DNA of 64,000 nt, from NCBI GenBank assembly GCA_051313645.2, contig JBNRSN020000015.1, forward strand, positions 125,922,001-125,986,000, in the 5' to 3' direction. Each line of letters starts with the position of its first letter. The first letter of the stretch is position 1. This document shows, piece after piece, positions 21,354-47,257 of this stretch. Source of the DNA: Centroscyllium fabricii. Taxonomy: Eukaryota. The notes below the pieces were generated by a model. The model had not been told where the DNA came from, made no database searches, and saw nothing but the letters and a program-made list of their open reading frames with translations. The translations under genes and the position numbers were made by a program.

Positions 21354-24046
21354 CAGGTCCGACATCGTTAATCCGGCACGGGTAGGACCAGGCCGGTGCC
21401 GGACAAGTGAAAACTCCAAACGATTGAAGCTTCGGCGAGCGCATGCGCAGACCATTCAAAATGGCCACCGCGAAGGCTGGCAGCCATTTTGAATGGTCTG
21501 CGCATGCGCTCGCCGAAGCACCAATCGTTCGGAACCATTCAAAATGGCTGCCGCAAAGCATTTTGAATGGTCTGCGCATGCGCTCGCCGAAGCATCAATC
21601 GTTTGGGACCATTCAAAATGGCCGCCACGCAGGCTGCCGGCCATCTTGAATGGTCTGTGATACGTTTCTGCGTCATCGCTATTACGTTTTCCTGTTACCA
21701 ATCCTCGAGGTGTATGTGAGAGCAAATGAGAGACACAGCACAGAGAGCTTATTGACACACGTCTTTACTTGATCGATCTCCAGTGAAGCCCAAGGATACA
21801 TTCCGGTGCAGCGCCTTATATTCTCAGTGACCTAAAGCTGCACTACTGTAACCTTCCACTATACCATACAAGTCCCAGTACAGCTGCTATGCCATTGGCT
21901 CACAGGCTGATACAGCGGCATTGCCATTGGCTCACAGACTGTCCATCATAGCCTTCTCACAGTCTACTCACATACACTACACTCCTCCCCCCTTACATGA
22001 GCACATCACCCCTCTTTGTTTTTCATTAAACATTTTACAACAGTACAGTGTTATTCTACATTACTAGGCAATTCTACTGTGCTCATTCACTAACATGAAC
22101 ATACTACAATTTTACTTGTTACAACATGGTTATCTAGTGACTCCTTACTTTAACATTTAACACACATTAATAAGAGTCAATGACTTTACTGTAACATTCA
22201 GCCCAAGCCCTGATATTCGGCATAAGGATCTTCCTCCGTCGTTGGAAAAGTGTCCATGTACAGTCTTTGAACGGGTTTGTCCGTTACTGGGTTAGTCTTG
22301 GTGTTCGGATGATGGTATTCGTGTCCCCTTGGTTGCTTAACCTCCGCAGCATTTCTTCTTGCTGACTCTTGCGACACCGCTATGTTAAAAACTGTTTCCA
22401 AGGTTAAATCTTTCTTCATCAAGAGAAGTTTCTGTGTGCTTTCTCTCAGCCATCCACAAACAAATCTGTCTCTTAATAGTTCAGTTCGCATCAAATTTAA
22501 AAGAGTAATCGCTTTCCGGTCTTCCGCTACTTCAACCCTTTTTAAATAAGTGTCCCAGTTCTCGATATCATTATCGCACGATGTTACTATAAAAACTTTT
22601 GTCATCTTCAGTTATCTTTTCTTTCAGCTTTCAAAACTTTCCTTTCGTTTTCAAACTTTTCTCTTTTTCAAAACTTTTTCTCTTATTCTTCAAAGCTTTT
22701 CTTCCTTTTTCAAAGCTTTTCTTTCTTTTCCCAAGCTTTTCTTTCTTTTTCAAAGCTTTTTAAAGTTTTCCTTTTTGCCAAACGTTTTAAAGATTTTCCT
22801 TCAAAATGGCTTCTGCCTCGTTTTGAAGCTTTTACAAAATGGCTGCTGCCTTTCTCCTTTACTAAGATGGCTGCCGCCTTGTTTTGAAAATCTTTACAAA
22901 ATGGCGTTTGCCTTTCTCCTTTACTAAGATGGCTCCCGCCTTCCACGATGCTTGCAGCTCCCGTTTACAACGCTACTTCAGGGTAAGGGAAAATACAATG
23001 ACTTCTTCTGCCTCTATTTCCCTTCCCTCCCCCCTTTTGGGTTCCCCTGCAGGTAAAGAAAGAAAAACGACTTCTTCTGCCCCTCTTCCCCTTTCTCCCG
23101 TTTTTGCAGGTTCCTACCGCACTTCCCCGCGGTCTACACGGTGGCCTGGCGTCACTAAGCCCTCAGCAGTGGCCTTCCCCACCCCTAGACACAGTGTACC
23201 CCTTACTAAACCACCGGGGGCTTCCCGACTCACCCCGTGTCAATTACAGCGGCGTCGGTTTCTTTTTCAACTCCTGGAGATCGATGCCTGCTGTTTTCTA
23301 GTCAACACTGACTCAGCTGCTCTTTTCCTGTCTCAGGCTGCCTGTTTGCTGGCTAACCTGTTTTTTAAGTTTGTCTGTGCTCTGTTGGCTGCTTGCCCAG
23401 CCTCTGGTTTTGCCTCCAGCCGTTTTTAAAGCAGTTACTTCCAGGCTGTTCCTGTCTTTTTCTTTCTGGGTGTTTCTTCTTTGAATTTTCCAGTCTTCAG
23501 ACTTTTTCTGAAAGTCCTGTAGGTTCAAATTAATCCGCTATCCCATCACCGTCGCCACTGATACGTTTCTGCGTCGTCGCTATTACGTTTTCCTGTTACC
23601 AATCCTCGAGGTGTATGTGAGAGCAAATGAGAGACACAGCACAGAGAGCTTATTGACACACGTCTTTACTTCATCGATCTCCAGTGAAGCCCAAGGATAC
23701 ATTCCAGTGCACCGCCTTATATTCTCAGTGACCTAAAGCTGCACTACTGTAACCTTCCACTATACCATACAAGTCCCAGTACAGCTGCTATGCCATTGGC
23801 TCACAGGCTGATACAGCGGCATTGCCATTGGCTCACAGACTGTCCATCATAGCCTTCTCACAGTCTACTCACATACACTACAGTCTGCGCATGCGCTCGC
23901 CGAAGCATCAATCATTCGGGGAGGCCCGGGCATGCGCAGCCAAGTGCGGCGGCCATTTTGCGCATGCGCAGACCAGTGGGCCGGATTCATTCCGGACGAC
24001 TGAAGTTAGCGGATTACCAGTGTCCGGATTAACGGTGCTCAACCTG
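21354..24046. mobile_element. Tigger/pogo-like MITE interrupted by the 21658-23882 LTR element
   Basis: TA flanks. Imperfect TIRs CAGGTCCGACATCGTTAATCCGG and (reverse complement) CAGGTTGAGCACCGTTAATCCGG. Internal palindromic tandem units. Confidence 0.8.
21658..23882 (-). mobile_element. Non-autonomous LTR element with decayed Gypsy-type gag, no pol
   Basis: 324-bp LTRs at 21658-21981 and 23559-23882 (about 4 differences), TSD GTCTG. Minus-strand PBS TGGCGACGGTGATGGGAT (tRNA-Ser(GCU)-like), PPT at 21982-21995, gag-like remnant 22198-22605 (ENWDTYLKRVE, LRDRFVCG, DLTLETVFNIA). Confidence 0.92.
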
Positions 24047-27491: not shown

Positions 27492-27630
27492 TTTCAAATA
27501 AGACTGTTGGACTATAACCTGGTGTTGTGTGACTTCTTACAATTGAGAAACCAGGAGAGGGGATCGATTTGAAAGCTGGTAGGGGCTGGGGAAAGGGGGA
27601 GGGGCTGAAAGAACAAAGGGAAGGTCAGTG

Positions 27631-29850
27631 TGTGGTGAACCATTTAGTGTAGTTCACACTGTTATTATTGTATATAGTTTGTGCTAATAAAGTTGTTCCT
27701 TTCTGTAAGGACCTGGACCAGCTGACCCCGCCTCCGGGTATGAGTATAAAGGAGGATGCTCCGCCCACCTGACTCTCATTCCAGGCAAGACTCATCGCGG
27801 ACCAGGTCTTGTTCTTAGCGAATAAAAGCCTTTGATTACGATCCACGAAAGACTGGCGTGATTGATTAGCGCATCAATTTTATTCGCTAAGATTTACAAT
27901 GGGTGATGAGCCAGGACAGAGCCAACAGCCAGCTGCACCAGACACCTGGAGATCGATCCTCAGTGGCAGGGTCTTTGCAATCATCAAGAACGCCACTGAC
28001 TATGATGCAGCGTTGGAGCTGCTGAGGGCTCGGTACCTCCAGCCTGTCAACGCTGTCTACGCTCGCCATCTACTCGCCACGCAGAGGCAACAGCCTGGTG
28101 AGTCGAATGAGGAGTACCTGGAGGCTCTTCAAGCTCTCGTTCTGCGCTGCGAATGTGCACCCGTTAATGCCCAGGAGCACATGGACCTCCTCGTCCGCGA
28201 TGCCTACGTGGCAGGAATCCGATCGGCCCCAGCGCGCACCCGCCTGCTCGAGCAGGATGATTTGTCCCTGAACCAGGCGGTGAAGCTTTCCAATGCGGTG
28301 GATGGGACCCTCCGCAGCCTGGATTCGTACACGGGGCACAGCTCCCACACGGTTTCCCCAGGGCCTTGGGACTCACGTTTAACGCCCTCGACGGCAACCG
28401 TGGCGGCCACGGCGCCATCCGGACAGCCAGCACCCCTGAAATGCCACCTCCCGCCCTCGACGGCAACCGTGGCGGCCACGGCGCCATCCGGCCAGCCAGC
28501 GCCCCTGAAATGACATTTTTGTGGCCATAAACGCCACCCACGAAGCTCCTGCCCAGCGAAGTCGGCATCCTGCTCCAGGTGTGGCAAGAAGGGCCACTTT
28601 GCGAAGGTCAGCCGATCGGCCCCGGAATCTACAAAGAAAACGGCAGCAGCCTGCAATCTCTACGCCACAGAGTGGCCTCAGGTACCTGGCGCCCCCCAAT
28701 AGCGTTTTTCTAAGAAACTATTACTTACTTTGCCTCGGGTGCGGCCTGCCAGCGCCATTTCCCGCGTTCTGCCGTTTTCCTCCTCAGTAGAAACATGGGC
28801 GCCGTCGCCATCTTTGGGGGGTGCGGCCTTCTTCATGCCTGGAACGGCAAGAACGGGCGGCAGAGGCCCTGCCCCATCACGTGACGCCGCCGTCTCCCAG
28901 CGTCACATCAGCAGCGGTCCCCCCACATCACGTGCCGAAGACCAAACGGGCGGCAGAGGCCCCGCCCCATCACGTGACGACGCTATCTTGGTGCAGGACG
29001 GCCTGCATACCTGCAGCAAAGGGCCCGACACCATCTTTGTATAGGAGGATTTTTAAAGCACAGGCTGCTGCAGCAACTAGTGACTTTAAATCAACCTCAG
29101 TGATTCTGGCAGCTGCAACAGACTGCTCCAGACCACTTCAGCGTCCCGGCGCTGCTGCTGCGCCGCGAGCCCTTCGGTCTTCCCGACGGCATTCTCAGAG
29201 ACTCACCCACCGGTCCGAAACACCACCGCGGCCCGCCGCATGCGAATCACGGGCGCCGCCACCAACCGTGGTTCCTGCATCGCACAAGGGCCCCAGCGCG
29301 CACATTACATCGAGGCCCTTGCCACCTACAATGCACGACGGAGTTCATCACGTTGCTCAACCTCCGGCGGCTGCTACACCTCCACCAGATCTTCCTGCGT
29401 ATGAACCTCCTCTTCCACCGGTGGAGTCCCTGTTCGCTTCGGGAGCTCCGTCAGCATCTTTTCTGATTGCGACTACTCCCGCTTTTTCGTGCGAGTCGCC
29501 ATTGCTTCACAGGTCTTCTCGGACTGTTCGACCTCCTCAAGGACTGATAACGCAGTGCTGATGTTCGCCCCGCGGGACTTGTTTTTTTAAGGAAGGGGTG
29601 AATGTGGTGAACCATTTAGTGTAGTTCACACTGTGTTATTATTGTATATAGTTTGTGCTAATAAAGTTGTTCCTTTCTGTAAGCACCTGGACCAGCTGAC
29701 CCCGCCTCCGGGTATGAGTATAAAGGAGGATGCTCCGCCCACCTGACTCTCATTCCGGGCAGGACTCATCGCGGACCAGGTCTTGTTCTTAGCAAATAAA
29801 AGCTTTTGATTACGATCCACGAAAGACTGGCGTGATTGATTAGCACATCA
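27631..29850 (+). mobile_element. Non-autonomous LTR element with gag and two CCHC knuckles, no pol
   Basis: LTRs at 27631-27876 and 29603-29850, TSD CAGTG, PPT AAGGAAGGGGTGAA. The gag ORF 27899-28513 (YARHLLATQRQQPGES, VRDAYVAGI) continues in frame past a TGA into HFCGHKRHPRSSC and CSRCGKKGHFAKV. Confidence 0.92.
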
Positions 29851-32472
29851 CAGTGACAGGATAGAAGCCGGGGAGATTATGAGACATTGAGAGACATTAA
29901 GAGAAATTCAAGGAACACAGGATGGCTCTAGAGGTGTGAACGGCATTTCTACAGCACCTTTAACATAGTGAAACATCCCATGGTGCATCACAAACCAAAA
30001 TTTGACACTGACGAACAAAGGTATATTGGGACAGGTGACCAAAAGCTTGTTGCTCACAGAGTTAGCTTTTACGGAGCGTCTTAGAAACATAGAAACATAG
30101 AAGATAGGAGCAGGAGTAGGCCATTCGGCCCGTCGAGCCTGCTCCGCCATTCAATGAGATCATGGCTGATCATCCAAACCCAGCACCCTGTCCCTGCCTT
30201 GTCCCCATATCCCTCGATCCCTATCGAGCCTGCACTGACACACATCCCACCCTATCCCCGTAACCCCACATATTCAATCCCCCTAACACTGAGGGTCAAT
30301 TTATTCTGGCCAATCAACCTAACCCGCACATCTTTGGACTGTGGGAGGAAACCGGAGCACCCGGAGGAAACCCACGCAGACACGGGGAGAATGTGCAAAC
30401 TCCACACAGATAGTCACCCGAGGCCGGATTTGAACCCGGGTCTCTAGCGCTGTAAGGCAACAGTGCTAACCACTATGTCACCGTGCCGCCCTAGGACAAG
30501 AGAGAGCCAGAGAAGTTTCGGGAGGAAATTCCAGAGCTTAGGGTCTTGGCAGCTGAAGGCACGGCCGCCAATGCTGGAGCAATTATAATCGGAGATGGGC
30601 AAGAGGCCCGAATTAGATAAGCACAGATATTTTGCAGGGTTGTAGGGCTGGGGGAGGTTACAGAGATAGGGAGGGGCGAGGCCATGGAGGGGTTTGAAAA
30701 CAAGATGAGAATTTTTAAAATCGAGGCGTCGCTTAGCCAATGTAGGTCAGTGAGATAACGCCACTAAAGCAAAATTGGTTAACTGCCGAGTCACCTCATC
30801 AGTGGGATCTTGTTGTACGTAAAATGGCTACTGTGCCTTCTGCAAAACAGCGACTGCACTAACAGTAATTCATGGTATGTAAAGCGCTTCCTCAGAGAGG
30901 CAATAAGACTATTAAAATGGAAGCCTGTCATTCATTGGTTCCAGTGTAGTTGGAAGTTTAATTAGATTCTTGTGGCATGATGCATATTAAGAACATAAGA
31001 ACTAGGATCAGGAGTGGGCTGTACGGCCCCTCGAGCCTGCTCCGCCATTCAGTAAGATTACGGCTGATCTTTGACCTCAACTCCACCTTCCCGCCCGATC
31101 CCCATATCCCTCGATTCCCCCAGAGTCCAAAAATCTATCGATCTCACCCGTGGGGGCGGCATGGTGGCACAGTGGTTAGCACTGTTGCCTCACAGCACTG
31201 GAGACCCGGGTTCAAATCCAGCCTCAGGTGACTATCTGTGTGGAGTTTGCACATTCTCCCCGTGTCTGCGTGGGTTTCCTCCGGGTGCTCCGGTTTCCTC
31301 CCACAGTCCAAAGATGTGCGGGTTAAGTTGATTGGCCATGATAAATTGACCCTTAGTGTTAGGGGGGATTAAATATGTGGGGATAGGGGGGGATATGTGT
31401 CGGTGCAGGCTCGATAGGGATCGAGGGATATGGGGAGAGGGCAGGGACAGGGTACTGGGTTTGGATGATCAGCCATGATCTCATTGAATGGCGGAGCAGG
31501 CTCGAAGGGCCGAATGGCCTACTCCTGCTCCTATCTTCTATGTTTCTATGTGTCCTAGCTCGCACCAAGTCCCGTTCACCCATCTCCCCTGTGCTCGCTG
31601 ACCTACATTGGCTCATTCCTCCTTTAAGACGCTCCTTAAAACCTGCATCTTTGACCAAGCTTTTGGTCACCTGCCTTAATTTATCCTTAAGTGGCTCGGC
31701 GTCAACTATTTTGTCTTAAAACACTCCTTTGCGGCGCCTTGGGACGTTTTATTACTTTAATTGCGCTATATAAATACAAGTTTTTGTTGTTGTTGGATAT
31801 ACTCAACGACTGAGCATCCACAGTCCTCTGGGGTAGAGAATTCCAAAGATTCACCACCCTCTGAGTGAAGAAATTTCTCCTCATCTCATTCTTAAATAGG
31901 CTACCCCTTTTCCTGAGAATGTGACCCCCTATTCGAGACTCAACAGCCAGGGATAATATTTATTTTGAATGAGTTTTCACAAAAAAAAGGAAAAAATATT
32001 AGTTCCGGTACTTGGAATATCATTTTGTTCCATCTCCATGAACATATTTAAATGGAAATTGTATCAGCACAGAGCAAGTCCCACACTCTTCCGTTTGATA
32101 AAGGTGTGAAAAATTAAATGTGCGTCAAGAGCAGTGAGAAAGCGGCAATGGATCAATTATTTTGTGCTTTGAACACAGGTGCGAGAAATGCTTGTGAACA
32201 GTTGCGGGGGGGCGGGGGGACACCGGTAGAATGTGTTAAGGACGTGTTAAGTGTCATGAATGAGCTGCTGGTGTTGCATTCTGCAGTTACAGAAGCACAT
32301 CAATACTATTTTACTCATAAAAAGTTCAGATCTGCCCTACACGAGGACCAAGAAAAAGAAAACACTTTCATGACCACCGCACGTCCCAAAGCGCTGTACA
32401 GCCAATGAAGCACTTTTTGAAGTGTCGTCACTGTTGTAATGTAGGAAACGCGGCAGCCAATTTGCGCACAGC

Positions 32473-41161: not shown

Positions 41162-44100
41162 TGTGGCGACACGCCCACCAGGACCATCGAATCCGCCTCG
41201 GGAGTACTGCGAGACGGCCCCGCCCGCCGGGCGGCGTGATGACGACACCGCGACTTCCGGCGTGATGACGTCGCCAGGTGGACACCTGGCAGTGACGTCA
41301 CCAACCGCAGGTCCTTTAAATACCTTGGTTCCAGGTGGCTCACTCTCTTTCGCTACCTGGCCATAGCTGAGTTAACATTAAATGATTGTTTTCCGAATCT
41401 TCTGTGTCCAGCGTGGTTCTTCAGGCCTGCATGCCTCTACAGTGGTGACCTCGATACTTGGAACGAATTCCAAGGGAACATAATGAAGCAGTTGCTGCAG
41501 GACTGAGGGCCAAGCTGCCTCAGTTGAATCACAACCACCATGTCAGCAGGGAGCCAAACAGCACGACTCCACAGACGGGGCCAGAACTACGGCCAAATCC
41601 CAAACTTACCAGAGTTCTGGGAACTCCGTCCAGCGGCCTGGTTCCTCAACACAGAGAACACCTACCGCATCCATGGCGTACAGGGGGACGATCGATACAG
41701 CCTGCTCTTCGCGGCCCTTACACAGCCCACGATCGACCGAATGTGGTCATCCATACAGCACGAACCAACTGCTGGCAGGTATGAAACGCTACAAAAATTC
41801 ACCCCCACCCAATTTGAGCACGACTGCCAGCTCATTAACCTCCCCGAACTCGGGGACGCAGACCCATCGGACCTCTGGGCCCAAATGGAAGCGGTCAATT
41901 GCGACCCGGCCACCATTAAGCGCGCCTTGTTCCTCCTTAAACTGCCCCCCTCCGTCAGACCGGCTCTGACGGTCCTTGAGCACTATACCAAGGAGCAACT
42001 GGCTCAGGAGGCCGACAAGCTGATGAGGGCCGAGCGCACCCGAGCCGCCATGGGCCAACCCACCGCCGCTCAACCGGAGCAGTACTACGCGCACCCCAGG
42101 CCCAGCCCCAGGTCCCAACCCAGACCGGTGCGGACCCGTAAAAAGCCACGCACCACAGGCCCCGGCTGGTGCTACTACCACACCAGGTTTGAAGCTGAAG
42201 CGCAGCGCTGCGTCCAGCCCTGCACCTTCAAACCCCAAACCAGCCCAAGCCCCACCATGTCCGTAGGCCGCTCTGGAGCACTGCTCTTTGTCACGGACAG
42301 TGGCTCAGGCCTCCGCTTCCTCTGCGACACAGGCGCGCAGCACAGCATCATGCCAGCCTCCCCCGCAGAAACCAAGCAAGGCACCCAAGGCCCACCACTC
42401 GAAGCCACAAACGGCTCCGAGATAGTTACGTTCGGCACCCACCAGCTTACCATCAAGCTAGCAGGCCACACGTACAAGTGGGACTTCATCACAGCCCAAG
42501 TCAAAATACCCCTACTCGGGGCCGACTTTCTGTGCGCCCACGGCCTCCTGGTCGACGTTACCCGACGCCGCCTGGTCGACATCCACAACATGTCGACCAT
42601 CCCATGCTCCACAGGGCCGGCACACCAGACCCACGCAGCGTCCCACTGCCGAGCCCGGAACTCCGACACGTACGCCACGCTCCTCGCGGAGTTCCCAGCC
42701 CTAACCAACCCCACCTTCACAGCCCGTACGGCCAAGCACAGGGTGGAGCACCACATCACCACCGCAGGCCCCCCAGTCCATGCCCACGCACGTAGGCTGG
42801 ACCCGGCCAAGCTGGAGATCGCGCGCGCCGAGTTCCACATCATGGAACAACTCGGCATAATCCGCCGCTCCAGCAGCCCCTGGGCCTCTCCCCTCCACAT
42901 TGCCCCCAAACCCGGCGGCGGCTGGCGCCCCTGCTGGAGACTACCGCCGCCTCAACAACGCCACCACCCCGGACAGGTACCCCGTCCCCCACATCCAAGA
43001 TTTCTCAGCATGGCTAGCCGGCTGCACGGTCTTTTCCAAGATCGACCTGGTACGGGGCTACCACCAGGTACCAGTGCACCCGGCGGACGTCCCTAAGACA
43101 GCCGTCATTACCCCATTTGGATTATTTGAATTCCTCCGAATGCCCTTCGGACTCAAAAACGCGGCCCAGGCCTTCCAACGCCTCATGGACTCAGTCCTGC
43201 GGGACTTGCAGTTCACGTTCGTCTACCTAGACGACATCCTCGTGGCCAGCACCTCCCCCCAGGAACACCTCCTCCATCTCAGGGCCCTTTTCAACCGCCT
43301 GGCCGAACACGGCCTTATATTAAGCCCCTCCAAATGTCGATTCGGCCTCGAGACGATCGACTTCCTCGGCCACCGTATTTCCCAGACCCGTATTTCCCAT
43401 ACCCCTGCCCTCCAAGGTGCAGGCGGTTCAGGAATTTCCCCGCCCGCACTCCATCAAGGGGCTGCAGGAATTCCTCGGGATGGTTAACTTCTATAACCGC
43501 TTCATCCCAGGAGCAGCCGCTCTCATGGCACCCCTCTATCAGGCCACCCGCGGGCAGTCCAACAAGGCTGCGGTCGAGTGAACGGCCGAAGCCTCCACCG
43601 CCTTTACCGCAACCAAAACCGCCCTGGCTAACGCCACGCTCCTCAGCCACCCTAGGCCCAACGCCAGAGTAGCCCTCACCACCGACGCCTCCGACCGCGC
43701 CGTCGGAGCAGTCTTTGAGCAGTGGACAGGTGACTCCTGGCAACCCCTGGCCTTTTTCAGCCGACAACTCTGGTCCCCGGAGGTCAAGTACAGCACCTTC
43801 GATAGGGAGCTACTCGCTCTCTACCTCGCAGTGCGCCACTTCCGCTTCCTCCTAGAGGGCCGCCACTTTACAGCCTTCGTGGATCACAAGCCACTCGTGT
43901 CAGCAATGGCTAAGATCTCCGAACCCTGGTCGGCCAGGCAGCAGCGCCAGCTCGCGGCTGTGTCGGAGTTTACCACCGACATACAGCACATCACCGGCCG
44001 CGACAACGTGGTCGCTGACTGCCCCTCACGCCCCACCATCAACTCCGTTCAAACGGCCGTCGACTACGCCAAACTGGCGGCCGACCAACTGACCGACCCC

Positions 44101-45780
44101 GATCTGCTCGACCCAGCTACCAACCTCCCCGGCCTGCTCTTGGCCACCATAGCACACGGGCCCACAGCCACGGAGGTCCGCTGCGACGTCTCCCTCCCGC
44201 AGCCCAGACCCGTCGTTCCCCACGCATGGAGGTGACACATCTTCCAGACCCTCCATGACCTGTCCCACCCCGGTGTCCGCGCGTCCACAAAGCTGATCTC
44301 TGCGCGATTCGTTTGGCGCGGCCTGCGCAAGGATGTCCGCGCCTGGACCAACACCTGCAATGCCTGCCAGCGCGCCAAGGTGCACGAGCACATCAAGGCA
44401 CCAGTGGAAACGATCGCCATCCCAGCTAGACGCTTCAGCCACGTCCACATCGACCTGGTCGGACCACTACCACCATCACGGGGACATACACATGTCATGA
44501 CCATGGTCGACCGCAGCACCCGCTGGCCAGAAGCGGCCCCCCTCACCGCTACCACCACCGCGGACCTGGCCAGGGCCTTCATTGCCACCTGGGTCGCACG
44601 TTTCGGCGTCCCCACCGACATCACATCAGACAGGGGCCCCCAATTTACCTCAACCCTATGGGCAACCATCGCCCACGACCTCGGGGCAACCCTGCACCGA
44701 ACCACCGCCTACCACCCACAGGCCAATGGCCTCTGCGAACGGTTCCACCGCTCCATCAAAGCTTCCTTGCGGGCCAGCCTCAAAGACGCGACCTGGACCG
44801 ACCGCCTGCCCTGGGTAATGCTCGGCCTGCGTTCAGCGGCCAAGGAAGACCTGCACGCCTCAGCGGCGGAACTTGTCTATGGCCAACCCCTAACCGTACC
44901 AGGTGAGTTCGTCGCAGAAACCAACGCCCCCTGGTCAGTCGACCGCTGCCTCAAAGACTTCAATAACCAGGCAGCGGCGTTCAAACCACTTCCGGTGGCC
45001 CGGCACGGAGAGCCGGCAGCACGTGTTCCAGACGGCATCGAAAATGCCAAGTATGTGTTTGTCCGCCACGACGCACATCGAACACCACTACAGCCACTGT
45101 ACGACGGACCGTACAGAGTGTTTCGGGCGGGACCTAAAACGTTCCAGATTAAAATGGGCAACAGAGCTGAGACTGTCTCAATCGACCGGCTCAAACCGGC
45201 ACATGTAATGGCGGGTGAGACAACAGTCCCCGCGCAGCCACCAAAGCGCGGATGCCCTACCGCACCAAAGCCCGCCCACACTCCAACGCAGAACAAGGAG
45301 CAGCGCACGACATGTGCTTGCCGCATCATCAGGCCACCTCAACGCCTCGCCTGAGACTACACGGGCGGGCCGCATCATCAGGCCACCTCAACACCTCGCC
45401 TGAGACTCAACTTTTATGCTCCATTTTTTTATTTTACTTTATGATCCTTTCTACTTTAGCTTAAACTTCGCTCTCCCTCACAGATTCTGGGGGGGAGCTG
45501 TGTGGCGACACGCCCACCAGGACCATCGAATCCGCCTCGGGAGTACTGCGAGACGGCCCCGCCCGCCGGGCGGCGTGATGACGTCACCGCGACTTCCGGC
45601 GTGATGACGTCGCCAGGTGGACACCCGGCAGCGACGTCACCAACCGCGGGTCCTTTAAATACCTTGGTTCCAGGTGGCTCACTCTCTTTCGCTACCTGGC
45701 CATAGCTGAGTTAACATTAAATGATTGTTTTCCGAATCTTCTGTGTCCAGCGTGGTTCTTCAGGCCTGCATGCCTCTACA
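41162..45780 (+). mobile_element. Full-length but disabled Ty3/Gypsy LTR retrotransposon (gag-PR-RT-RNaseH-IN)
   Basis: 280-bp TG...CA LTRs at 41162-41441 and 45501-45780 (4 differences by eye), TSD GTGC, PBS TGGTGACCTCGA (tRNA-Trp-like), G-rich PPT before 45501. Motifs: FLCDTGA protease, FVYLDDILV RT, TDAS/DRELLA RNase H, HHCC and DDE integrase. Frameshifts near 42935 and 43400; stops near 43579 and 44233. Confidence 0.95.
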
Positions 45781-47257
45781 GTGCACTCTTTAGTGAAGAG
45801 TTACATTTTCTGAAGGAAATATCCAGGCCCTCATAATATCTGGGACTTTACTGTCTGGCTAAACTTATTAAAAGCGCTATCTGGAGGACGGTAACATTCC
45901 CGGGTTCTTCCTTTCCTTTCGGGAGAGAGAGTCCGGACCTTTAGACCAAGTTAAGCGTCTTTAGGATTCGGCTACCTCAACCTTTAGTTGAAGGTGAACA
46001 TCTGAGAAATACGCCTGATCCGGGGTAGCCCCAAAGGGGCTAGGACAAGTAAACATCCTTTCAGAAGGAGCATTGAGTCGAGTCTGGAGGTAATAAAGGC
46101 ACAGATGAGTTGAAGAGGTTCCGCTACCTGTATCCACAAGGACCCAGTGCTTTTGGCCAAGTATTTTCTTTTTTGATGTCCTGCCAACCGTTGTGTGCCA
46201 GGCTACATGATGGCATAGAACTGCTGCTGAAGGAGTGCCAACTGGGTGCTGCTTTGGTACTCAATGCATACCATTGATGGGAGTGTAACTTCTCACAACC
46301 TCCACTGATCTGCATGAAAATATAGCTGTGGGCATCGATGAGGGTTCGGCATCCACCCACCATGGCTATCCCGAAGCATGACCATGCTGGCCATGACTGT
46401 GCCTTGACTCCAAACATAGAAAAAAGGCTGTATACCAGCAGTGGAAGCATTCAAGAGAGATTGAGGGAGTGCTGCACAGTCGGAGGTGCTGTCTTTTGGA
46501 TGAGGCGTTTAACTGAGGCCCGGTCTGCTCTCTCAGGTGGATGTAAAAGATCCCGAAGCACTATTTTAAAGAAGAGGCGGGGAGTTATCCCCAGTGTCCT
46601 GACCAATATTTATCCCTCAATCGCTGACTTGAAAATATATCGGCCGTTCCTTCATCGTCGCTGGGACAAAATCCTGGAACTCCCTCCCTAACAGCACTGT
46701 GGGAGCACCTTCACCACACGGACTGCAGTGGTTCAAGAGGGCGGCTCACCACCACCTTCCCGAGGGCAGTTAGGGAAGGGCAATAAATCCAGACCGTGCC
46801 GGCGACGCCCACATCCCAGGAACCAATAAAATCCTCACTACAAACGGATTATCTGGTCATTATCAAATTGCTGTTTGTGGGAGCTTGCTGTGCGCAAATT
46901 GGCTGCCATGTTTCCTACATTACAACAGTGACTACACTTCATAAAGTACTTCATTGGCTGTAAAGCGCGTTGGGACGTCCGGTGGTCTTGAAGATGGTTT
47001 GTGTAGAAATGTAAGTCTTTCTTTTTCTTTATACCACTGTGCCTATAGCTTGTGTGGGTGAGGGTTCCCTGCAGATACCACTGGTGTTGCCAAGTGCTCA
47101 GCAGCAGATGGAGTGGGCATGTGTTAAATCACCGATTTTACAACCAATTGCTAATTGGATAGTTAGATGAAGCCAGTAAAGTTCAGGTGGTTTAAAATGT
47201 CCAGATTTTAAAAACTTTTAAAACTTGCTTTGCAATGTAAGTGAAAGAACACAGTTA

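Follow-up and report, generated by a model that had tools for sequence, protein, structure and literature searches.

Self-priming of reverse transcription has been proven for the retrotransposon Tf1 and is linked mainly to the Tf1/sushi chromoviruses. In Tf1, the first 11 bases pair with the primer-binding site and are cut off by RNase H between bases 11 and 12 (PMC7175516), and two further duplexes, which complete the so-called pretzel of three, join sequence adjacent to the primer site with the LTR (PMC10085805). Self-primers have also been predicted in plants, for the gypsy element Tcn1 and the copia elements TAR, Houba and Osr-1, from a stretch of at least 10 nt that lies 0–5 nt past the 5' LTR and is complementary to the LTR (PMC6317226); this is the same sign as that described below, although the plant elements belong to other lineages and hosts and the clade considered here is animal. 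A structured RNA 5' end is further known from HIV-1, where the 5' poly(A) signal is repressed by structure, cap proximity and U1 (PMC5961354).

The window, as we call the whole stretch of 64,000 nt of Centroscyllium fabricii DNA that was analysed, holds three LTR elements. The one under study (27631–29850) is bounded by TG...CA LTRs with a 5-nt target-site duplication at both ends (Table 1), and the end of its 5' LTR at 27876 is backed by loose contig ends lying behind it in three of four runs (X1, X10 and X11). Its gag is damaged, with an N-terminus shorter than that of its relatives, an in-frame stop (28511–28513), an internal tandem duplication (28383–28446 and 28452–28515) and two zinc-knuckle remnants; protease, RT, RNase H and the integrase core were absent from the element, tblastn giving no pol match. 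The copy is tied to a Ty3/gypsy clade through Gag, its pol being lost, and on these sequence features it is classed as non-autonomous, within an animal Ty3/gypsy clade that has no chromodomain. In the best-matching run, where 1109 contigs aligned over 181 nt, the family is abundant, and the element had no DNA match among plasmids. The SINE and LINE repeats of the window, together with ray proteins among the relatives, would fit a cartilaginous fish as host.

Table 1. Features of the LTR element at 27631–29850, in window coordinates.
Feature	Position	Strand	Basis or remark
Target-site duplication, left copy, 5 nt	27626–27630	+	Identical 5 nt at 29851–29855
5' LTR, TG...CA, 246 nt	27631–27876	+	96.8% identity with 3' LTR
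TATAAA box	27745–27750	+	Sequence; no clear equivalent at the same distance in the remaining 17 families
Initiator-like motif; transcription possibly starting near 27778	27776–27782	+	33 nt downstream of TATA box; start predicted
LTR arm, putative self-primer, containing AATAAA (27821–27826)	27813–27827	+	Exact complement of 27878–27892; geometry common to 18 families
Conserved RCC directly behind the arm; predicted cut 27827/27828	27828–27830	+	Paired inside the loop, probability 0.97 (window copy)
Loop, remaining R plus U5; inner stem stacks on main stem	27828–27876	+	Predicted fold
Putative primer-binding site, complementary to own LTR arm, beginning at +2	27878–27892	+	Sequence
Broken gag	27899–28699	+	34–45% identity to clade Gag, E 1e-30 to 1e-38
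Open frame; end resembles the C-terminal tail of clade integrase (by eye only)	28791–29561	+	No Pfam match
Polypurine tract	29589–29602	+	Near-identical tract in L037
3' LTR, 248 nt	29603–29850	+	96.8% identity with 5' LTR
Second arm copy, one G>A change at a CpG	29787–29801	+	Inside 3' LTR
Target-site duplication, right copy, 5 nt	29851–29855	+	Identical to left copy

The element at 41162–45783, which by its features we take to be CsRN1-like, is a near-complete Ty3/gypsy element with LTRs 98.6% identical, a 4-nt target-site duplication, a DUF7041 Gag, a broken pol and a TGG site. That at 21658–23885, on the minus strand, is non-autonomous, with LTRs that are 98.5% identical, a TGG site and no Pfam match in two inner frames, and a nest of long inverted repeats (21429–21550) adjoins it.

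According to the initial annotation, the tRNA site of the element under study is missing and its place is taken by a perfect complement of the poly(A)-signal region of its own LTR, and the sequence bore this out. Arm and putative primer site are exact reverse complements at 15/15 positions, the ungapped stem being unable to grow at either side; no TGG follows the 5' LTR, the end of which is separated from the stem by a single A (27877); and the TATAAA and AATAAA motifs that had been reported were both located (Table 1). Both neighbouring elements, noted as having tRNA-type sites, have a G and then TGG after the 5' LTR, and these sites pair with their own LTRs over only 4 nt (21658–23885) and 7 nt (41162–45783). 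The primer sites of all three elements begin at +2, the stem thus sharing the register of both TGG sites. Perfect inverted repeats of at least 15 nt within 100 nt occur at about eight further places in the window, so that an inverted repeat alone is not rare here, although its position is: by simple arithmetic, the chance of a 15-mer at +1 to +4 matching anywhere in the 246-nt LTR is near 1e-6. Folding of the stem region gave z-scores of −3.48 (0/200 shuffles) and −2.87 (1/200 shuffles).

In runs X1 and X6, no stem position carried a variant at 2% or more and three loop positions carried variants at 24–45%; the flanks outside the stem were equally quiet, and the scarcity of variants in the stem is therefore not counted as support. 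The loop variants common in the host family fall at window positions 27843, 27847 and 27860, the last of which appears to change a G-U pair of the inner stem to A-U.

Searches with the Gag core returned 1393 relatives at E 0.001 among cluster representatives, and named matches came from cnidarians, nematodes, an echinoderm and a ray (Nematostella, Actinostola, Trichuris, Trichinella, Apostichopus and Hypanus), the Nematostella protein P0003 being among the nearest Gag relatives. No longer protein was recovered with the Gag core as query, and no relatives were found in the viral contigs scanned. In the long relatives, one frame of about 1200 aa encodes Gag-PR-RT-RH-IN and has no chromodomain; the order protease, RT, RNase H, integrase was seen in 4/4 long frames, and the best match of the relatives to a solved structure was Ty3 Gag-Pol (E 2e-63). 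At the integrase C-terminus no chromodomain was detected at E 0.1 in any of the four frames (that of L081 may end early), nor was one present in the precomputed Pfam lists of the best 120 of 1109 RT relatives. RT and RNase H of the clade are only 29–36% identical to those of the TGG-type element at 41162–45783. One predicted protein (P0076) carries a clade Gag fragment within an apparent host protein, which looks like mis-annotation or exonisation.

With a Gag alignment as query, 80 of 87 confirmed metagenome loci were retrieved, and a Gag-Pol alignment added four, of which L081 was used and L082–L084 were without a Gag start. All four of these come from contigs assigned to bacterial metagenome-assembled genomes and are in all likelihood eukaryotic contamination. 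The resulting 82 sequences (81 loci and the window) were reduced to 56, the dropped ones having less than 130 nt upstream (7), not starting at ATG (12) or being without the junction motif (7). The junction was anchored by a short motif, which was validated on LTR pairs and target-site duplications in two-LTR loci, and where a locus held several matches the best-pairing one was chosen. The 56 kept loci form 18 families at 80% gag identity, and the window is 50–55% identical to the nearest; as the query group was nearer to the Nematostella protein than to the window, the loci sample the clade and not the close kin of the window copy.

Throughout this sample the primer site pairs with the LTR of the same element. 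Runs of at least 10 with the own LTR were present in 14/18 representatives (taken first by id), versus 6/306 cross-family pairs and 2/900 shuffled LTRs. From +2 to +14 after the LTR, 229 of 234 cells across the 18 families are Watson-Crick pairs with the own LTR, the letters changing from family to family, when L048 is re-anchored; before re-anchoring the count was 227 of 234, with 24 pair types beyond the first and up to four per column. Permuting the sites among families gave a mean of 143 and a maximum of 181, and 0/5000 permutations reached 227 of 234, a comparison in which the register, picked for best own pairing, favours the observed value and the cells, coming from related families, are not independent events. 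For columns +7 to +14 alone, 140/144 cells are paired against a permutation mean of 71. Pairing is present in 18/18 families at +14 and then in 13, 12, 11 and 7 of 18 by +18, a drop that sets the core of the stem at 13 nt; the inner end of the stem is fixed, and the loop varies from 32 to 71 nt among families. A TGG at the primer site, the start of the site in tRNA-primed animal Gypsy clades such as Mag and CsRN1, was found in 0/56 kept loci. The complementarity, the conservation of which among relatives, with compensatory changes, had been proposed as a check, is therefore kept and covaries across 18 families.

Intact relatives whose open frames are whole (L002, L004 and L021) have the same geometry, and the junction is common to many contigs of other runs. 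Together with the covariation across the clade, the intact relatives refute the reading that the pairing is due to chance or to an inverted duplication private to a defective copy; this reading could call on the eight or so other short inverted repeats of the window, and we regard it as having practically no chance of being right. A local hairpin is predicted with a probability of 0.81–0.99 in 17/18 families (L048 was mis-anchored in that fold). Seven of the 26 dropped loci were checked by hand and gave runs of 14, 9, 15, 10, 14, 13 and 5, the last of which is truncated where the contig begins. Among all 82 loci the stem is absent from seven (L033, L034, L052, L053, L057, L059 and L064), which look rearranged, and mismatched stems occur in L008, L013, L024, L031, L036, L039, L054, L055, L068, L075 and L076.

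Some loci have peculiarities of their own. In L048 the LTR end and primer site are seemingly duplicated, lying about 98 and 26 nt upstream of the gag ATG, the first copy pairing perfectly with the arm and the second, near the ATG, being decayed. One family is split by a single base at +15 (L018, L021, L029 and L030 versus L017, L019, L022, L025, L026 and L058), which gives a stem of 19 or 13 bp, the long form reaching the A of the gag AUG. A further family (L063, L072–L074) has a 15-bp stem and ACG in place of RCC behind the arm (read in L063). The contig of L006 (1–16) starts exactly at the 5' end of the arm, a single case that may be an assembly break.

The covariation also bears on the proposal that the site binds a host tRNA half, a tRNA fragment or another small RNA and that the match to the LTR is secondary. 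Half-tRNA primers without TGG are known in Ty1/copia lineages (PMC6317226) and the arms share a loose consensus, but the eighteen differing sites each match their own LTR and not one common RNA, and matches in Rfam were weak, far below the gathering score (E 2.8–8.8). ARAGORN found one tRNA in the window and loci, which is too few for a comparison with tRNAs. We hold a host small RNA as primer to be very improbable.

Behind the arm the sequence is strongly conserved. The arm ends in AAA (17/18 at each position), the following bases are R (18/18), C (18/18), C (16/18) and T (16/18), and the A at +1, which is opposite the R, is never paired. A helix of at least 4 bp opens at that R in 15/18 families, against 4.3 in shuffles, and the summed length of this second helix is 81, whereas 500 shuffle rounds averaged 50.8 and reached 70 at most; it closes at loop position 11–39. 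The window copy has only three ungapped pairs in it (P 0.79), and the fold pairs these bases with a probability of 0.97. A fixed stem end beside a conserved motif and a stacked helix is the pattern that a defined cut site would be expected to show. By a simple longest-helix test in the 18 families, the two duplexes flanking the stem in the Tf1 pretzel were no better than shuffles (79 versus 77.9, and 99 versus 97.4).

Like Tf1 and Tf2 of Schizosaccharomyces pombe, Tj1 of S. japonicus and the Tf1/sushi elements, the clade has the Ty3/gypsy domain order and, right behind the 5' LTR, a site complementary to its own LTR in place of a tRNA site (PMC7175516, PMC4600332, PMC10085805). It is to Tf1 that we liken its predicted priming (PMC7175516, PMC4600332, PMC5341516). 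The duplex has 11 nt in Tf1 (PMC7175516) and a core of 13 nt in the clade, and there are differences beyond length: the chromodomain and the pretzel duplexes are lacking, the last bases of the arm resemble a poly(A) hexamer and lie only 32–71 nt short of the LTR end, the helix behind the arm is another one (RCCT...AGGY), and the primer may not be 5'-terminal. With two group features missing, the chromodomain and the pretzel, we would not file the clade under the Tf1/sushi chromoviruses.

Where the transcript starts decides how close the likeness to Tf1 would be. In the window copy, the TATA box and the initiator-like motif place the start about 35 nt upstream of the arm, which would leave a 50-nt primer, unlike the 5'-terminal primer of Tf1; no clear TATA box was found at a common distance in the 17 other families. 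An AG lies 10–11 nt upstream of the predicted cut (A in 12/18, G in 15/18). Such an AG resembles the invertebrate initiator motif, and it could itself be an initiator. A start at the arm would make the priming Tf1-like and a start further upstream would make the primer internal; the copy of the arm in the 3' LTR is a third candidate. A pyrimidine tract with YAG, resembling a splice acceptor, lies upstream of the arm in the window (27769–27783) and in L040, L042, L045, L048 and L080; as a clade feature it was rejected, being present in only 5/18 families at scattered distances, and the window itself fails the filter.

It had been claimed that the stem can form only at the 5' LTR, which is too strong, because the arm is also present in the 3' LTR and that R copy could pair with the site in trans or at a distance; what is restricted to the 5' end is the local hairpin. 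An alternative follows in which the arm of the 3' R copy acts as primer, coming from the trimmed 3' end of the same RNA or of a co-packaged one, cut at the same AAA/RC. The arm, lying upstream of the expected poly(A) site, would be present at both RNA ends, the second helix could occur in both R copies, and, if transcription starts at the AG, the pairs at −12 and −13 (18/18 each) would be possible only with the 3' copy. The local hairpin predicted in nearly all families would, however, out-compete such a long-range pair, and the 3' arm of the window copy is mismatched, though that change may postdate insertion. We know of no precedent for a primer from the 3' R copy, which we count against it, and consider it unlikely.

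The overlap of the arm with a poly(A) signal raises a different alternative, in which the stem only regulates the fate of the RNA, by hiding the 5' poly(A) signal or by gating gag translation, and another primer is used. Among the 18 representatives the arm ends in AATAAA (3), ATTAAA (6) or a listed variant hexamer (5), that is in 14/18, and a canonical hexamer occurs further along the loop in only 2/18, so that the arm hexamer would probably be the working signal in many families and be covered by the stem at the 5' end. The gag AUG, moreover, lies 16–35 nt past the LTR in most families, and the HIV-1 5' signal is repressed partly by RNA structure (PMC5961354). Masking, though, needs neither an exact start at +2 nor the loss of the tRNA site, no alternative primer site is visible, 4/18 representatives keep the stem without any listed hexamer, and poly(A) signals closer than about 50 nt to the cap are weak as a rule, cap proximity being among the factors named for HIV-1 (PMC5961354). 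Regulation as the sole function of the stem thus appears decidedly unlikely. As a side effect of the stem masking is plausible, and the overlap of arm and hexamer fits it; that covering the 5' hexamer is a by-product of a self-priming stem seems to us a serious possibility, at somewhat less than even chances. Priming in HIV-1 uses a tRNA. Its 5' polyA hairpin, like the stem of the clade, holds the hexamer at the RNA 5' end but lies inside R, whereas in the clade the partner strand of the hexamer is the primer site, outside the LTR (PMC5961354). The window element has a second AATAAA in U3 (27688–27693), upstream of the TATA box, and a U3 AATAAA of L081 lies at nearly the same distance from the predicted cut (−143 versus −142 in the window).

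Comparison of close copies bears on how arm and site could stay matched. Between L014 and L007 only 10 of 850 positions differ, and two of these make up a compensated pair, the arm change of L014 being present in both LTRs and matched in the primer site; the chance of such a pair is about 6e-4 for a single comparison and, by simple arithmetic, one to two percent when some 25 close comparisons are considered. In L029 the arm is changed in both LTRs and the primer site is unchanged, which would be the expected intermediate of templated copying, a state that could arise under any priming mode. Other close copies carry single, uncompensated changes. In the host family no compensated change was seen among contigs of the matching runs, and in one X10 contig the arm appears changed at two positions, the primer site staying as it was. 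In Tf1 the primer is said to remain on the DNA, a report attributed to Atwood-Moore 2006. A primer retained in this way and copied into the plus strand would carry arm changes into the site, for which the one compensated case is only suggestive.

Taking this evidence together, we consider it probable that the clade self-primes in the manner of Tf1, from the 5' arm with a cut at AAA/RC, and likelier still that it self-primes in one geometry or another. The arm in the 5' R would fold back in the genomic RNA onto the primer-binding site, as we infer for the RNA in vivo, with a short second helix usually stacked on the stem at the cut point. By analogy with Tf1, RNase H, which would have to act in trans for the gag-only window copy, would cut after the last A of the arm, and the freed 3' OH would prime minus-strand DNA across U5 and the rest of R, the roughly 10–30 nt between the cut and the poly(A) site presumably serving for the first strand transfer. 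If the primer stayed attached and the plus strand were copied from it, a single mutation in the arm would suffice to alter the primer site as well, and the tight covariation would be accounted for. Of the proposals made for the stem in the initial annotation, tRNA-independent priming is well supported by the covariation across the clade, the fixed +2 register and the lack of TGG; for a primer internal to R, the TATA box and initiator-like motif speak in the window copy only. It is possible but doubtful that a piece within R doubles as primer and poly(A) signal, one fold blocking premature polyadenylation, making the primer and rewriting its own site in each cycle. We are equally tentative about the wider form of that internal-primer reading, with release at a two-helix junction (AAA/RCCT...AGGY) in a clade reaching from cnidarians to cartilaginous fishes and by a mode distinct from that of Tf1. 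To all explanations other than those named here, taken together, we allot only a slight share.

The literature searched, with subscription papers and Repbase outside its scope, gave no description of priming in this clade. In a comparison with the named metazoan clades MolGy, PolGy, Tor and Cigr-1, no peptide motif of the clade turned up in the searched supplements of PMC6238403 and PMC8556966; a weak search of the supplements of PMC4085046 gave no match; and passages from PMC3601003, PMC6934838, PMC2864245, PMC6238403, PMC10680173 and PMC5443660 had no bearing on it.

The window stem is most likely a self-priming site common to the clade, and the pairing itself is confirmed in the sequence. 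A 'self-primed Gypsy' group is reportedly named in the supplement to the Nematostella vectensis genome by Putnam et al. 2007 and in Repbase, and is said to be a separate Gypsy clade of the sea anemone and annelids with 12–20-bp palindromes between the LTR and the internal part. If this is right, the claim at the level of the clade may already be in print, though untested there; no account of a cut junction, a second helix or an overlap with the poly(A) signal is known to us for that group.

The mechanism is already known in kind. A large chromodomain-less animal clade that bears the same sign in another geometry suggests a separate origin of independence from tRNA, and the clade provides a sharp and testable predicted cut site. 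If they are self-primed, such elements would evade tRNA-derived 3' fragments that silence other elements, and they would be missed by any annotation tool requiring a tRNA site.
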